Shown piece by piece: positions 2,768 to 28,994 of a stretch of 38,857 bases of DNA (positions are counted from its first letter, which is position 1; every line of letters starts with the position of its first letter). Both the position numbers and the translations under genes were made by a program. Location of the stretch: positions 1 to 38,857 of the forward strand of contig DYKB01000065.1 in NCBI GenBank assembly GCA_020722815.1. Reading direction: 5' to 3'. The stretch comes from Caldithrix sp. (lineage in GTDB: Bacteria; Zhuqueibacterota; Zhuqueibacteria; Thermofontimicrobiales; Sulfurfontimicrobiaceae). The notes beneath the pieces were generated by a model. That model did not search any database, had not been told where the DNA came from, and saw only the letters and a list, made by a program, of their open reading frames with translations.

Positions 2768-3481
2768 TCAGGACTCCTTATCTTTAAGTAGCCGTTTTTT
2801 TAATTGCGCTAATTCATCGACGACAGCTTGTTCCGTCAGATAGCGGTCGAATTGCGCAGATGGATTGAGTATCGTTTCGTAAATTTCTCTATTGGCTTCA
2901 ACTTGCGATTCAAGTTTTAGAATTTCTTCCTCCAGATTATTCATCAAGGTATTCAATTTAAGCAGGGTAAAATCACCAGATTGATCAACTGCAAATTTTG
3001 CATCTGAGTCGAATTCCGATTTCCAGTTTCCGATTTGGTTCTCAACGAGAATTTTTCGCCGTTCCAATTCCTGGCTTTTCTGCTGAACTTTTTCAAATTC
3101 TTTTTCCAAAAGTGCCAGTTCTTGTTTGAATTGGGTGGCAATTTGTGTTGCCTGTTTGAATTCACCTTCTAATTGTGTCCGTGAAGTTTGTATTTGTAAT
3201 TTTTTCGTAATGGCATCGCGGGCTTGTAATTCATTCTCTTTTTCAAATGCTTTTTGAGCTTCCTGTTCAAATATTTCTATTTTCGCATCAATTTCATTAA
3301 TTTGTTGTTCATATTGCTTTTGACAGGTCACCGCCCGAACAGTCTCCCGTCGCAAACGCAGGTGAAGTCCTTCAATTTCGGCGATGAGCTTCTTTATTTT
3401 GATTTCGGGATGCTGTTCAGGTTCCAGTGCGGCATTGAGATTGGCGCGAAAAATTTGATAAATTCGATTAAGCAGCCTCAT
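2768..3481 (-). CDS. pspA: PspA/IM30 (phage-shock protein A / Vipp1 / LiaH) family protein. The ORF track starts at 3496 (TTG), but the ATG at 3481 with a GAGGG RBS fits the family N-terminus.
   Basis: N-terminus MRLLNRIYQIFRANLNAALEPEQHPE matches the PspA start (M..F.R....ANINALL.K.EDP). Rest of the protein is coiled-coil. Only 1 nt gap to nfeD. Confidence 0.8.
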   Translation of the reverse strand: MRLLNRIYQIFRANLNAALEPEQHPEIKIKKLIAEIEGLHLRLRRETVRAVTCQKQYEQQINEIDAKIEIFEQEAQKAFEKENELQARDAITKKLQIQTSRTQLEGEFKQATQIATQFKQELALLEKEFEKVQQKSQELERRKILVENQIGNWKSEFDSDAKFAVDQSGDFTLLKLNTLMNNLEEEILKLESQVEANREIYETILNPSAQFDRYLTEQAVVDELAQLKKRLLKDKES

Positions 3482-9951: not shown

Positions 9952-12903
9952 TTACTTTTGCTCCGTATAAATCGTCACCATCACTCGCCGATTCAACTGT
10001 CTTCCCAGTGCTGTTTCATTATCCCCAAGGAGAATCTTTTCGTCAGTTGGAGAAAGAAATTCCAGCGGTTCATTTTCACCATGTCCTTCCGGCGCATCGA
10101 TCCGGTGGCGAATTTGATTAAAAATATCCGGATATCGTGATTTTAAATCTTTCACAAATTGCTCATGGAAAATTCTGGCGCGGCGAATGGAAAGAATTTT
10201 ATTCACTCCTTCCGGGCCAACTGCACAGCCATGGCCGACAAATTTGATTCGCTTATCCGGTGACTGTATTAAATGCGGTATCATATCTTCCAGATTTGAC
10301 CAGTAAAAATTATAATACGGTTTGGCCTCGGCAAATTTGGCGATGAGATAATAAGATCGTTCAATATTTGTTTTTTCAGTATTTAAAACAGCATTCTTTA
10401 GTCGGGTGCGAAATTTACGGCCCAATGAATCAGTTAATGTTAATGAATAACCCAGATTTTGAATTTCACCATTAATCTGCTCCTTTAAACGTGATTCAGA
10501 TATTTGCCAATCAAATGGCCTGAAGAGTCGATTTTTAGCAAATTTTGATAAAATACTAACCAGATCGGAGGTTTCATTTAACTCAAGGGCCATAAATGCG
10601 CTTTCAAGCGCAACGGCACTGCTGATTTCACCATTAAATTGGATGGGAAAAAATTCTTTTCGCTTGTTTACCGATTGAACCGGATAAAATAAGACTTTTT
10701 CAATCGATTCTTCAATAGAAATCGTAACGTATCTTCGTTCTTCCAGGATGTGTCGCGCATCGTTTTGATTTTTTGGTAATGTGCGTTTTGCAAGGAGTTC
10801 ACCAGGCATTATCATAATTTGTTCTGAACGAACTCCCAATTTTATCAGTGAATCACGGACCGCCAGGGCGCGCGCGTTCGCCAGATTCACATTTATTTCA
10901 TCAGCGTTGGGATCAGCCGTGCCCTGGAGCCTGACTTTCAAATCCCGCTGCTCATTCAATCTTCTGGCAAAATAGGTGAGCGGCGGCAGAACGGAAGAAA
11001 TTTTCCCAAATTGATTTTTGATAACAGCACTATTTTGCCCGAAAAAGATTTTCCCGATGTAGGGCAACTCAAAAATTTTCGTATAGACTTTTGCTGCCAA
11101 TAGTGTATCCGCAGTAAAGAATCGCCCTTTGGGAATTGTAAAAAACTTTTCTGTTCGCTGTGTATGCAATTTTGTGGTTAAGCTATCTTCCGACTTCACT
11201 ATTTTGGCAGAAATTGCATGTAACCCCGGTGTCGAAGTGTGCCATCCAATGACAACGGCAGTTGAATCACCTGATTTTAAATCAGGAATATCTTTTTTTG
11301 CCATTGCAGGACGAACAGAATGGATCGAATCCGAATTGACCGATTTCTCGGGATTCGCTTTGGCCGGAAAATTATCAAAAAGCTGAAGCTGAAAATTTTT
11401 CGCGACCTTTTCACCTAAATTCTTAATGACAATTTTCAATTTCCCCTGGTAATCATCTTCAGTAATCCAGGAATCCGGTTCAAAAACAAAAGCCAAAATC
11501 TCGGGATCAGGCGCTGTCAAAGTAAAGTTGGCAATTTTATGGCGGCCCCGGTTTGCGAAACGAATATGCTGATCCCGATCATAAGCAAAAACCAGCCAAT
11601 AATATTTACCGGAATTTAACCGGGTGCTCAAAAATTCGGTTTGAAGCAGTCGTTCATTGATATGGAAGTTCATTTTCGGTAATTCATAAATGAGACTGAC
11701 GGGATCTTCCTGACTTTTTTTAATAACGTCCACCAACTTAACGCTATCTTTGCTGGCAAGCAGCCAATAGTTCAAATTATCATAAAGATCAGGATCGCGC
11801 GATGCTTCCCAGCGAAAAGGAACGGCATCTTCATCAATTTGAGCCCCCATTTCAGGCGATTCCATTTGAAATCGCTCGGGAAGCAGCGGTTGATGGGTCA
11901 CCGTCCCATGATAGGGCGCATCAAAAAAGCTATTTTCCTGATTAAGCGCCAGATCAACCCGGAGGGCATTATTTCGGCCTGGAAATAAGTTTTGAAAAAC
12001 CTGATCATTCAGTTGAAGGCTGCCCCCAACCGTTAAATTTCCCAACAAATTATCTTCCAGGCTAAATCCCATCTGAATTGCAATAAAATTCCGCCAGGAA
12101 AGTTCAGTCCCTAACGATAAAAAGCCTTCTTCATCCTTCACCTGACGGTAATCGATACCCGTGCTCAATTGAACTCCCCGATGTGAACCCAGATGCAGGG
12201 CGGTACCCATCCGAAAAGTTTCGGGAAGGGGTGTTCCTTGATTATTGTAGTGAATTTCGTCGCCCAGATTATTGATACCAATACCGGCGGTAAAAATCGC
12301 GTACTCAAAAGCATTAAATGATGCCGACTCAAAATTAATTCTCGGCGAACGAAACAGAATCCCTGTATCAAAAATAACGGCATTGGCATTAAAATCTGCC
12401 AATTGGCTGTTGAAATATTTGATATTAAATCCCCAGAGCAAATTGGGTGTCAGCTTACTTAAGGGTTGACCAATACTCATGGTTGCCACGAGATGATGCC
12501 CACCAACGCCAGCCGTGGTCGCGCGCGCACTATTAAATGTAGGAATTCCCAGATAATTCACCCCCAAAATCATTCGTGTCTGCTGGCTGATGGGATTCCG
12601 CAGTCGACGACCAAAGAGGAAAGTCGTATGATAAATATCCGAAACCCAGGTTGAATAACTGCTGGACCAGAACCATTCACGGCTCAAGCCGGTGGCTGCC
12701 GGATTTGAAAAATAGGAATATGAATAATCGAGTACACTGGTTGTGCTACCGGCCATCCCGACACCGCGTGCATCGGGAACGATTTTCAAGTAGCCAATTC
12801 CGGAGCGAATTTGCCCATAACTTAATCCAAAGATCAGGAGGATGAGACAAAATCCGGTAGTTACATTCTTTATATGGTTTATTTGTATTTTTCTCATGTT
12901 CAC
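9952..12903 (-). CDS. Outer-membrane protein: N-terminal beta-barrel (PorP/SprF- or PorV-like, uncertain), central CARDB-like region, two C-terminal OmpA-like peptidoglycan-binding domains. Putative anchor/partner for the upstream T9SS adhesin.
   Basis: Signal peptide. Aromatic-rich alternating beta-strand N-terminal ~330 aa ending in a C-terminal Phe-type barrel pattern. OmpA-like cores LQGTADPNADEINVNLANARALAVRDSL and FVGHGCAVGPEGVNKILSIRRARIF...APEGHGENEP. 9 bp downstream of the adhesin gene. Confidence 0.55.
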   Translation of the reverse strand: MNMRKIQINHIKNVTTGFCLILLIFGLSYGQIRSGIGYLKIVPDARGVGMAGSTTSVLDYSYSYFSNPAATGLSREWFWSSSYSTWVSDIYHTTFLFGRRLRNPISQQTRMILGVNYLGIPTFNSARATTAGVGGHHLVATMSIGQPLSKLTPNLLWGFNIKYFNSQLADFNANAVIFDTGILFRSPRINFESASFNAFEYAIFTAGIGINNLGDEIHYNNQGTPLPETFRMGTALHLGSHRGVQLSTGIDYRQVKDEEGFLSLGTELSWRNFIAIQMGFSLEDNLLGNLTVGGSLQLNDQVFQNLFPGRNNALRVDLALNQENSFFDAPYHGTVTHQPLLPERFQMESPEMGAQIDEDAVPFRWEASRDPDLYDNLNYWLLASKDSVKLVDVIKKSQEDPVSLIYELPKMNFHINERLLQTEFLSTRLNSGKYYWLVFAYDRDQHIRFANRGRHKIANFTLTAPDPEILAFVFEPDSWITEDDYQGKLKIVIKNLGEKVAKNFQLQLFDNFPAKANPEKSVNSDSIHSVRPAMAKKDIPDLKSGDSTAVVIGWHTSTPGLHAISAKIVKSEDSLTTKLHTQRTEKFFTIPKGRFFTADTLLAAKVYTKIFELPYIGKIFFGQNSAVIKNQFGKISSVLPPLTYFARRLNEQRDLKVRLQGTADPNADEINVNLANARALAVRDSLIKLGVRSEQIMIMPGELLAKRTLPKNQNDARHILEERRYVTISIEESIEKVLFYPVQSVNKRKEFFPIQFNGEISSAVALESAFMALELNETSDLVSILSKFAKNRLFRPFDWQISESRLKEQINGEIQNLGYSLTLTDSLGRKFRTRLKNAVLNTEKTNIERSYYLIAKFAEAKPYYNFYWSNLEDMIPHLIQSPDKRIKFVGHGCAVGPEGVNKILSIRRARIFHEQFVKDLKSRYPDIFNQIRHRIDAPEGHGENEPLEFLSPTDEKILLGDNETALGRQLNRRVMVTIYTEQK

Positions 12904-26725: not shown

Positions 26726-27127
26726 ATGATGAAATATCCAGGGTTAATGACTATTTTACACATATTGCTAATTTCACCACTTGTGATTCCCCAAAATTTT
26801 ACCACCCAGCCAAAATTATCGGCTTGTCCAACCGCCATGATGACACAAGTGCCTTCAGCCACCACAATTATTAATGATCGGTATCACTTTGCCCAACCGG
26901 TGTTTCTTTTTCAAAGAATAGCTCCCATGACAACTGCTGCCCTGCCGATGAGAAAAATTATTAAAACTGATGATCGGGCATTTGATAAGAAAGTGTTTTT
27001 CAGGTTGGTGACGGGGAAAAATCTAATGATTAAAAATTTCGTCAATCAGCTAATTTTACCAGATTCTTCGTTCATATTGAATAATCAACCACCAAAACCA
27101 CCGCAACGATTTATACGAAAGAAATAG
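26726..27127 (+). CDS. Hypothetical small secreted protein
   Basis: ORF with an N-terminal signal-peptide-like segment. No recognisable domain. Confidence 0.25.
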   Translation: MMKYPGLMTILHILLISPLVIPQNFTTQPKLSACPTAMMTQVPSATTIINDRYHFAQPVFLFQRIAPMTTAALPMRKIIKTDDRAFDKKVFFRLVTGKNLMIKNFVNQLILPDSSFILNNQPPKPPQRFIRKK

Positions 27128-27147: not shown

Positions 27148-27706
27148 GCTTTACCAAACCTTGCGCCTTTTGAGGTCAGTCCAGAATTTGGTTTTAAATC
27201 ACCATTAATTGTTATTCACGCTCCGGGTTAAAGGTTTGGCAAAGCCCACGCGCCGCTTTGCCAAACCTCGCCGAATCACCAACTGGTGAGAAACGCAAAA
27301 ATCGTCCTGAAAAGCCGAAACGTGGTTTGTGAATCTGGTTTGGTAAAGCTTGAGCTGCGTAAAAACCTCGAGTACAAGCTTTACCAAACCTTGCACCTTT
27401 CGGGGTCAGGTCAGGATTGGTTTTTAAATCACCATTAATTGTTATTTACGCTCCGGGTTGAAGGTTTGGGAAAGCTTATTCACCGCTTTGCCAAACCTCG
27501 CCGAATCACCAACTGGTGAGAAACGCAAAAATCGTCCTGAAAAACCGAAACGTGGTTTGTAAATCTGGTTTGGTAAAGCTTGGGGTGACCTGAGAGCTTG
27601 GGAAAAAGCTTTACCAAACCTTGCGCCCTTTGTGGTATGGTCAGGTATTGCTTTTAAACCACCTTCAGATATTCAATGACATTCCGGATTATAGGTTTGG
27701 CAAAGC
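27148..27706. repeat. Tandem array (2.4 copies, period 230 bp) of a ~202-bp unit bounded by inverted 13-mers GCTTTACCAAACC ... GGTTTGGTAAAGC, with an internal hairpin GGTTTGGCAAAGC-N10-GCTTTGCCAAACC
   Basis: Units at 27148..27349, 27378..27579 and 27608..~27706. The 28-bp spacers between units differ. Confidence 0.8.
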
Positions 27707-27715
27707 TCCCTGCTT

Positions 27716-27832
27716 TACTATCATCGCGCAATGTTTTGCATTAAATTCATTTTGCATCGCTATCATCGCGCACTGTTTTGCATCAAAATTATTTTGCATA
27801 GCTATCAACGCCCAATGTTCAGAATTTAGAAC
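27716..27832. repeat. About 2.7 copies of a 42-bp tandem repeat (TCATCGCGCAMTGTTTTGCAT + YAAATTCATTTTGCATMGCTA)
   Basis: Read directly. It also generates a spurious Cys/Ala-rich ORF at 27621..27860. Confidence 0.7.
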
Positions 27833-27926
27833 GCTTTGTTTTGTTGAAAATGGCCTTTGATTGAAAGTAAGTATTCAGTTTAGTTTAAAGATTATGCTTT
27901 TTCAGGGAGAGTTTGCAAAAATTTAT

Positions 27927-28994
27927 TCAATTCTCAGCCTTTTCCGTGAGACTTTTAATCCCAAAGTCAATAATCGGGGCAAACATGTTAGCGAGCAGAA
28001 TGGCGAACATAACGCCGCCGGCAAAGAGGGAGAATGAGCGAATCAGCACTGTGAGCATGCCGGCCATGGCACCATAAATCCAGCGGCCGGCATTCGTGCG
28101 GGCCATGGAGACGGGGTCGGTGATCATAAAATAGCCGGCATAAACCAGGCCACCCGCAAGCAAGCCAAACAAGGGATGGGGAACCTGCGCAGGGACAGTT
28201 AAATGCAGGATTGTTTGCAGCACCAGGAATCCGCCGAAGAAACTAACCACTACACGCCAGTTGGCAATTTTTTTATAAAGCAGATAAATCCCGCCAATTG
28301 ACAGCAATAGCGCCGAAGTCTCCCCCAGTGAGCCGCCGCCAATTCCAACCAAATTCCCAAGCTTTTCAAATTGGCCATTAATATTACCGAGAAATAGTTG
28401 CCAGTAATCCGGAAGTGCGGCGGCACCATCACGGAAGGCACTAAGTGGCGTGGCGGTCGTGATGGCATCCACTAAATCGGCGGCTTTGGTGAAGTGCCAG
28501 GACACAAATCCAGCCGGAAAATCGCTGAAATTGGCAGCGGGCAACCAGCGATTGGTCATGTGAACCGGAAAAGTAATGTAAACAAAACCTCTGGCCACCA
28601 GTGCCGGATTAAACACATTATTTCCAAATCCACCAAAGGCCATTTTACCGAAAGTTACGCCGAAAATCGCCCCTAAAGGAACCATCCACAACGGAATTGT
28701 CGGGGGCAGACTCAACGCGTAAAGGATGGCCGTGACGAGGATGGCTTCGGTGACTTTTCCGTTTTTCCCGCGCACAAAAAGCCATTCGGTTAAGACACAG
28801 GTGATAATTGAGAGGAGGGTAACAACAAATGCGAACCAGCCGAAAAAGAAAACCGCACCGAAGAGCACCGGTATGAGGGCATAAACGACTGTCCGCATGG
28901 CTGGTTGTTTCTGGAAAGCAATTTTAAGTGACATAAGAATCCTGTTGTTATATAATAGAATATGTTTGTAACGCAGCGGATGCGGAAAACGCAA
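27927..28994 (-). CDS. RnfD/NqrB-family integral membrane protein (orphan). Real start possibly the internal Met at ~28934.
   Basis: LSLPPTIPLWMVPLGAIFGVTFGKMAFGGFGNNVFNPALVARGF and GIGGGSLGETSALLLSIGGIYL match conserved NqrB/RnfD blocks. Confidence 0.8.
   Translation of the reverse strand: MRFPHPLRYKHILLYNNRILMSLKIAFQKQPAMRTVVYALIPVLFGAVFFFGWFAFVVTLLSIITCVLTEWLFVRGKNGKVTEAILVTAILYALSLPPTIPLWMVPLGAIFGVTFGKMAFGGFGNNVFNPALVARGFVYITFPVHMTNRWLPAANFSDFPAGFVSWHFTKAADLVDAITTATPLSAFRDGAAALPDYWQLFLGNINGQFEKLGNLVGIGGGSLGETSALLLSIGGIYLLYKKIANWRVVVSFFGGFLVLQTILHLTVPAQVPHPLFGLLAGGLVYAGYFMITDPVSMARTNAGRWIYGAMAGMLTVLIRSFSLFAGGVMFAILLANMFAPIIDFGIKSLTEKAEN

Follow-up and report, generated by a model that had tools for sequence, protein, structure and literature searches.

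The segment at positions 27148-27706 of Caldithrix sp. contig DYKB01000065.1 (assembly GCA_020722815.1), within the 38,857-nt stretch analyzed here and referred to as the window, contains five non-coding elements, each bounded by an inverted 13-mer (GCTTTNCCAAACC / GGTTTGGNAAAGC). We favor, with moderate confidence, reading this region as a mosaic cluster whose members are small non-autonomous repeats, with the anatomy of miniature inverted-repeat transposable elements (MITEs) and the arrangement of bacterial interspersed mosaic elements (BIMEs), which are built from repetitive extragenic palindromes (REPs). The elements constitute a new repeat family of a familiar kind; it falls short of the full definition of either a MITE or a REP/BIME, and its ends and length are unusually rigid.

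Tandem Repeats Finder describes the 560-bp repeat as having a period of 230 bp (2.4 copies, 83% matches, score 758), and the 230-bp copies at 27148-27377 and 27378-27607 are 87% identical. The sequence GCTTTRCCAAACC, allowing at most one mismatch, occurs 10 times in the window (5 per strand), always within 27148-27706, while shuffled windows give 0.09 occurrences. The repeat recognized in a preliminary description of this DNA is therefore real, and its two 202-bp blocks (27148-27349, 27378-27579) do begin with GCTTTACCAAACC and finish with GGTTTGGTAAAGC. Neither 202 nor 230 bp is the natural unit, however, since each 202-bp block is a head-to-head dimer (A-gap-B) of two separately bounded elements. 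There are two element types, A (98-99 bp, n=3) and B (95 bp, n=2), in the order A-9nt-B-28nt-A-9nt-B-28nt-A, with orientation alternating between neighbors; we designate the elements A1, B1, A2, B2 and A3, the 9-nt gaps g1 and g2, and the 28-nt spacers S1 and S2 (Table 1). In every window element, position 6 of the 13-mer is A at one end and G at the other, and like termini are opposed, the G-type across 9-10 nt and the A-type across 25-30 nt (9 and 28 nt in the window). The inner hairpin noted previously is present, with a loop of 9 nt (27246-27254, 27476-27484) rather than 10 and with an arm in the second copy that reads GGTTTGGGAAAGC; the mini-palindrome CACCAACTGGTG was found at 27277 and 27507, and a mini-hairpin TCACCA-AC-TGGTGA occupies 27276-27289 inside B1. 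The outer 3 nt of S1 lengthen the terminal palindrome to 16 bp. The G+C content of the elements is ~41-47%. An identical array is present in an independent Joint Genome Institute (JGI) contig (L001), and its start is also found in a Logan contig (L002) that breaks inside the array, so the array is not an assembly artifact.

Divergence inside the 230-bp period is uneven. B1 and B2 are 98% identical and A1 and A2 89%, whereas the gaps match at 4 of 9 positions and the spacers (27350-27377 vs. 27580-27607), previously called non-homologous and rightly so, are 0.61 identical when gaps are allowed and ~54% identical without gaps. This argues against a simple recent duplication. Types A and B have their termini in common, and similarity further in is not significant (shuffle tests, p ~0.2). 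A type A profile matches type B best in reverse orientation (nhmmer); this and collinear short motifs hinted that A might be the reverse complement of B past the termini, an idea rejected on the same shuffle tests.

To define the family we compiled 34 termini from 17 complete elements (11 type A, 6 type B) in the window and related contigs of candidate division KSB1. All 17 have terminal inverted repeats and lengths of only 95 or 98-99 bp. Over 12 of the 13 terminal positions there is a single deviation in 408, while position 6 is free (A14/G14/C3/T3). Alignments of either type are nearly gap-free, although identity in the interior drops to ~50%, and the subterminal ~6-10 nt are kept within each type (AACCCGGA and GGYGCAAGG in A; AGATTC and GTTCGGYGAGG in B). 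With four-fold synonymous sites as the neutral yardstick (identity of 0.74 between the window and L021, and 0.39-0.60, or ~0.5, between the window and L023), B1 matches its L021 counterpart, L021B, at 88 of 95 positions (93%; p = 3e-6), and A3 matches its L023 ortholog (11925-12023) at 82 of 99 (83%). The one spacer with an identifiable ortholog, S2, is 0.73 identical to that of L021, which is the neutral level. Thus, the elements evolve more slowly than synonymous sites, and S2 drifts at an approximately neutral rate.

Related contigs show that the array is an old resident of the rnfD-side locus with an ever-changing composition, as it occupies the same place in relatives and is differently composed among them. 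A contig from the same sample (L003) lacks exactly one 230-bp block (S1+A2+g2+B2), with the junction falling in 19 nt common to the ends of B1 and B2. In L021 and L028, where the ORF (open reading frame) flanking the array is 86% and 62% identical, respectively, to that of the window, the array opens with a type B element in the place of A1+g1. In L023, L024 and L026 (flanking ORF 59% identical), two extra genes replace the array start and are followed by a terminus remnant, the gap CCACGCACC, one A3-like element and then 42-bp repeats. Every gain or loss breakpoint among these relatives lies in or at a 13-mer terminus. The extra genes of L023 (10888-11885) encode proteins of 156 and 170 amino acids and end 17 bp from the terminus remnant; neither has a convincing Pfam match, the best being DUF655 at E = 0.003, below the cut-off. 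L021 (KSB1 MAG, or metagenome-assembled genome, GCA_016932535.1) also carries an unrelated MITE-like insertion of ~165 bp between the ORF stop and the array (3136-3300), with inverted ends CCGTTCACAGGG...CCCTGTGAACG, apparently flanked by duplicated AAATTTA and without a counterpart in the window.

A second locus with these elements lies downstream of hisA. A scan of metagenomes returned one true relative, L005, with elements adjoining hisA, and we traced this locus through the clade via the closest HisA homologs. A further metagenome match (L004 2934-3027), a perfect palindrome of 94 bp at the extreme end of a contig and after an apparent coding region, was discarded as an assembly artifact. 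The hisA-locus elements lie between hisA and a converging aminoacyl-tRNA synthetase gene and start 10 bp past the hisA stop, and their number across relatives is 0, 1, 3 or 5 (Table 1). The gap at this locus, CCACGATTGC (reverse complement), is related to g1, and element order and orientation, A(-) S B(-) g A(-), are the same whether read from hisA or, in the window, from rnfD. The alternating unit orientation and alternating linker types that characterize REP/BIME clusters are present in the window and at the hisA locus of L034 and L005. The KSB1 clade thus has at least two unrelated intergenic sites, both between converging genes and 10-21 bp past a stop codon, and both are occupied in the sample from which the window derives. 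L034 (2261-2600; GCA_964602955.1) also has a near-perfect inverted repeat of ~330 bp after its hisA-locus array, with arms cttaactaatactacaacgttaagt...acttaacgttgtagtactaataac; this is an unrelated palindromic element.

The period of 230 bp, the one-unit length polymorphism within a single sample (L003) and the clearly recent [A+spacer] x4 tract of L035 could be taken to indicate plain, recent tandem duplication of neutral intergenic DNA. We regard this explanation as highly improbable: it is contradicted by the uneven divergence within the period, by the presence of the same elements at a second locus and in related genomes, and by termini that are invariant across lineages with near-saturated synonymous sites. 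A cluster of MITE- or REP-like elements fits best, given units bounded by terminal inverted repeats, a second locus, and gains and losses at the repeat boundaries, so that the first of the identities proposed in the preliminary description was essentially right. In such a cluster, the 13-mer would be recognized by a sequence-specific protein, either an enzyme of the transposase or recombinase type, which seeds loci, or a DNA-binding protein of the host, by which they are kept; such recognition would explain why the ends are conserved and, probably, how at least two loci came to be seeded. Arrays would then grow and shrink by recombination or slippage between identical ends of 13-19 bp, giving the gains and losses of whole elements. 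The 230-bp period of the window may be one such expansion, and a 125-bp period likewise. Effects on flanking genes, such as stable hairpins at both converging 3' ends, would be a by-product of the array and not its cause.

Several observations weigh against a cluster of mobile-type elements. Neither the window nor the related loci retrieved yielded a transposase or another candidate enzyme, and by inspection no target-site duplication is evident at array or element boundaries in the window, L021, L023 or the hisA loci. Copy number appears low, with one cluster in 49 kb of contig and two loci known. An exact-pattern scan of 185,579 species-representative genomes (596 Gb), with termini 60-90 nt apart, had no KSB1 genome among its matches. 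At the element-free hisA region of L037, positions 3203-3225 retain TTTGGGA-N7-TCCCAAA, which resembles a terminus-gap-terminus arrangement and may be a decayed pair of termini, so this is not a clean pre-insertion site. Long syntenic residence and element evolution below the neutral rate are also explained no less well by a selected host function than by a selfish element.

The main rival is accordingly a non-mobile, cis-acting host array, in which the 13-mers would be operator-like sites for a chromosomal protein (nucleoid-organizing, gyrase-like or looping), kept by selection in a fixed helical phase, with centers ~82-86 bp apart inside an element and 22-23 and 38-43 bp apart from one element to the next. 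Twelve invariant positions with a free position 6 are the signature of protein contacts, unit length is fixed without indels where interiors are only ~50% identical, elements at syntenic loci are conserved beyond the neutral rate, copy number appears low, and the paired ends show no covariation. The earlier suggestion that the region is an array of binding sites for one protein is compatible with the data, and the near-absolute invariance of the 13-mers even favors it. We nonetheless judge a purely host-maintained array to be unlikely. No candidate protein has emerged, the rnfD and hisA loci have no neighbors in common save for the converging-gene setting, a count of 0-5 elements among close relatives implies that no particular array is essential, and dispersed, multi-copy elements in other phyla carry these termini too, a pattern more suggestive of spread than of regulation.

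A weaker rival is structured RNA, transcribed in the 3' untranslated regions of rnfD and hisA or as small RNAs, in which a long-stemmed domain would stabilize or terminate the converging transcripts or act in trans. Folding is far stronger than in shuffled sequence for both array strands (z = -6.1 and -6.5; single elements, z = -2 to -5), both loci lie just past the stop codons of converging genes and have the same order of elements when read from rnfD and hisA, and in type B three substitutions at 27314-27315 preserve a small plus-strand hairpin through G-U pairs (manual inspection). Better-than-shuffled folding of the array and of single elements is, however, expected of any inverted repeat. 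The 11 type A elements show no compensatory change over 16 predicted pairs, the 14 terminal pairs are the same in all of them, and they have no interior helix in common; the interior hairpin and 'core' of type B are not conserved in the B-like elements of the hisA locus. At stem position 6 the pairing is random (A-C, G-U, A-G, G-G and U-A are all seen). Because neighboring elements are oppositely oriented, only half would be in the sense orientation on any one transcript. Rfam 15 contains nothing that matches the array, whether at its gathering threshold or with E ≤ 10, and for the window, region and related loci it gives only tRNAs located elsewhere; a search for tRNA and transfer-messenger RNA found none, and terminator-like sites are not enriched (1 found vs. 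1.9 expected). Tandem structured small RNAs, as proposed previously, are thus unsupported, and we consider an RNA function for these elements rather improbable. A stem that is invariant in sequence, without covariation and with one free position, points instead to recognition by a protein.

Other identities were also considered. In agreement with the preliminary description, the array is not a coding repeat: it contains only short overlapping ORFs, by inspection, differences between orthologous units do not recur with a period of 3 bases, and the longest ORF, of 63 amino acids and spanning B1, gave no candidate in a protein search. Readings as sigma-54 sites, attC sites or hammerhead-like motifs were dropped after by-eye comparison with known consensus sequences. 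Searches of the literature by sequence strings, by GIY-YIG in combination with repeats, and by COG2827/YhbQ brought up no description of this repeat family.

In the scan of species representatives, paired termini were found at 15 loci vs. ~2 expected by chance. Matches in Mucilaginibacter, which by inspection appear to be conserved coding sequence, and two singletons were set aside as chance. Two MAGs of Alphaproteobacteria (RUG13827 and UBA3635; L006, L013 and L016-L020, e.g., L013 4304-4404; termini CTTTGCCAAACC) each contain several elements of 93-101 bp with the same 12-mer termini, and one 96-bp element with these termini occurs in a Roseivirgaceae MAG (Bacteroidota). In the alphaproteobacterial elements the core, GTCATCCTGAGCG.AGTCGAAAG...GGATCT, is invariant, and the hairpins vary and show compensatory changes; these elements are frequently situated right after tRNA genes and sometimes form head-to-head composites. 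They have no Rfam match and could be an undescribed structured element. Neither the array nor the alphaproteobacterial composite has similarity to any of 72,556 plasmids, and three patterns gave no match in viral contigs. Comparing the interiors of the window elements with those from Alphaproteobacteria, one 24-nt hairpin match is significant (p < 0.0005) and collinear similarity is weak (z = 2-4); an alphaproteobacterial covariance model scores L021B at 21 bits and bare terminus hairpins at 20 bits. Homology of the interiors was rejected on account of the weak collinearity, a model score about that of bare hairpins and the lack of conservation of the type B 'core' at the hisA locus. Since any similarity of the alphaproteobacterial interiors to type B is weak, we claim only common termini and size.

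Occurrence of the 12-mer terminus in three unrelated lineages is far above chance and could reflect descent, transfer or a common binding protein. A bolder proposal, to which we give little credence, is that GCTTTNCCAAACC is recognized by an undescribed cross-phylum protein (KSB1, Bacteroidota, Alphaproteobacteria), either a sequence-specific DNA-binding protein or a recombinase or transposase, that would build and maintain elements of a fixed ~95-100 bp and their head-to-head arrays. If true, this would be a new system of the MITE type or of the type formed by REPs and their associated tyrosine transposases (RAYTs). The sole lead to such an enzyme, and a weak one, is a small GIY-YIG gene (109 amino acids, PF01541, E = 1e-15) located between two direct copies of the composite element in L017 (7330-7659), where the window has a spacer; this association was seen once, and the gene is absent from the window and all other loci. 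Two Cytophagaceae MAGs (L012 5370-5815, L009 4795-4890) contain dense arrays of CCTTTGCCAAACC-like motifs, direct and inverted, including 30-bp hairpins CTTTGCCAAACCttcaaGGTTTGGCAAAG; these bare-terminus arrays are downstream of what is apparently the same gene in both MAGs, as the sequence before the array is conserved.

BIMEs of enterobacteria and pseudomonads are similar to the array in forming clusters of alternating orientation with short linkers of two alternating lengths, in lying between converging genes just past stop codons, and in having a strain-variable number of units. REPs have a conserved GTAG-type head, exceed 100 copies per genome and are linked to RAYT transposases. The REPs from which BIMEs are built are GC-rich imperfect palindromes of 20-40 nt with a head tetranucleotide, whereas the units described here are AT-rich, 95-99 bp long and paired only over their terminal 13-15 bp, with inverted ends of 13 bp. 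Also unlike BIMEs, copy number appears low, and no RAYT or IS200-like gene was seen in ~49 kb of contig. RAYT-mobilized REP doublets (REPINs) resemble the elements in having two inverted short motifs ~70 nt apart in a hairpin unit of ~100 nt that can form clusters, but each REP of a REPIN is itself palindromic and the whole doublet pairs, while the interior of the elements described here is unstructured.

Known bacterial MITEs include Correia/NEMIS, ERIC/IRU, RUP and RU-1/2/3 (reviewed in PMC3184786, PMC2229807). The new elements are like them in being small, non-coding and intergenic, in combining terminal inverted repeats and conserved subterminal sequence with a variable interior and the potential to form a long hairpin, and in having related families with the same termini in several lineages. 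They appear to differ from MITEs in that no target-site duplication is visible and the known copies are few and gathered at two sites instead of being scattered, and they are syntenic and conserved beyond the neutral rate. We also know of no parent insertion sequence with these ends.

CRISPR (clusters of regularly interspaced short palindromic repeats) and integron attC arrays likewise interleave conserved palindromic repeats with short non-homologous segments of nearly constant length. A CRISPR combines repeats of 23-55 bp with unique spacers that are about as long or longer. Its proportions are reversed here, with a conserved part of 95-99 bp and a variable part of 9-30 bp (9 and 28 bp in the window), the 'spacers' have orthologs in other genomes and undergo neutral drift, and no cas gene was found in the window; the earlier exclusion of a CRISPR therefore holds. 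Integron attC sites have core sites of consensus RYYYAAC/GTTRRRY. The termini of the array do not match these core sites, and there are neither cassettes or ORFs between the sites nor an integrase.

Intergenic regions are molded by small repeat elements, which also break up assemblies and can be recruited as sites with a regulatory or structural role, and almost nothing is known about them in KSB1 and other candidate phyla. Arrays of this kind account for contig breaks in the present data (this array contains the ends of L002, L021 and L028, and the hisA-locus array the start of L005) and for spurious gene calls, e.g., ORFs on the neighboring 42-bp repeat. The family has an unusually clean signature, a 13-mer with 12 invariant positions and one free position, a rigid length, and gain and loss of whole elements at two loci, which suggests that a specific protein is its partner; a recognition module of wide distribution is hinted at by the presence of these termini in MAGs of Bacteroidota and Alphaproteobacteria.

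Table 1. Features of the array and its surroundings in the window, and element content of the hisA region in related contigs.
Feature	Coordinates	Strand	Description
Element A1	27148..27245	+	type A, 98 bp, GCTTTACCAAACC to GGTTTGGCAAAGC
Gap g1	27246..27254	.	9 nt, CCACGCGCC, between opposed G-type termini
Element B1	27255..27349	+	type B, 95 bp, GCTTTGCCAAACC to GGTTTGGTAAAGC
Spacer S1	27350..27377	.	28 nt, between opposed A-type termini
Element A2	27378..27475	+	type A, 98 bp, 3' terminus GGTTTGGGAAAGC
Gap g2	27476..27484	.	9 nt, TTATTCACC
Element B2	27485..27579	+	type B, 95 bp
Spacer S2	27580..27607	.	28 nt
Element A3	27608..27706	+	type A, 99 bp
133-aa ORF	26726..27127	+	no Pfam match, signal-peptide-like N-terminus; stop 20 bp before the array, converging on it
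42-bp tandem repeat	27711..27836	+	2.4-3 copies, starts GCTTTAC = first 7 nt of the 13-mer
RnfD/NqrB-family gene	27927..28934	-	PF03116 E = 1e-86, 335 aa, converges on the array; stop 220 bp past the array end
hisA region, L037-L039			no element, 110-bp spacer
hisA region, L033 (sample of the window)			one B-like element
hisA region, L034 and L005			A, 25-27-nt spacer, B, 10-nt gap, A
hisA region, L035 (same MAG as L021)			four direct [A + 26 nt] repeats, then one B-like element

The window is chromosomal, with genes that include those for ClpA/ClpS, Ogt, YchF, large surface proteins with C-terminal domains of the FlgD_ig type and the RnfD-family protein, and its DNA was placed on an 86-kb contig of GCA_973313415.1. 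No transposase, integrase, cas or reverse transcriptase genes were found in the window, and there is no skew switch indicative of a replication origin or terminus at the array site. The nearest named relative of the flanking 133-amino-acid ORF is in a candidate division KSB1 MAG. This ORF is fast-evolving (59-86% identity vs. 77-97% for neighboring proteins), and differences are about twice as frequent at third codon positions, which supports real coding; it is probably a genuine small secreted protein.

On the other side, the array had been described as abutting the 3' end of rnfD, and this proved incorrect: it ends at 27706, the rnfD stop is at 27927, and the 42-bp tandem repeat lies between them. 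This repeat accompanies A3 in relatives, with 9.5 copies in L023 (12042-12441) straight after the type A element. Each copy has GCTTTGC or GCTTTAC and two or three TTTGC motifs, and the small ORFs called by JGI on it are probably spurious. The best sigma-70-like match of the region, TTGGCA-16-TATCAT (10/12; a consensus match only), is at 27697-27724, where it is formed by the terminal 13-mer of A3 and the first 42-bp repeat and is directed into the 42-bp array.

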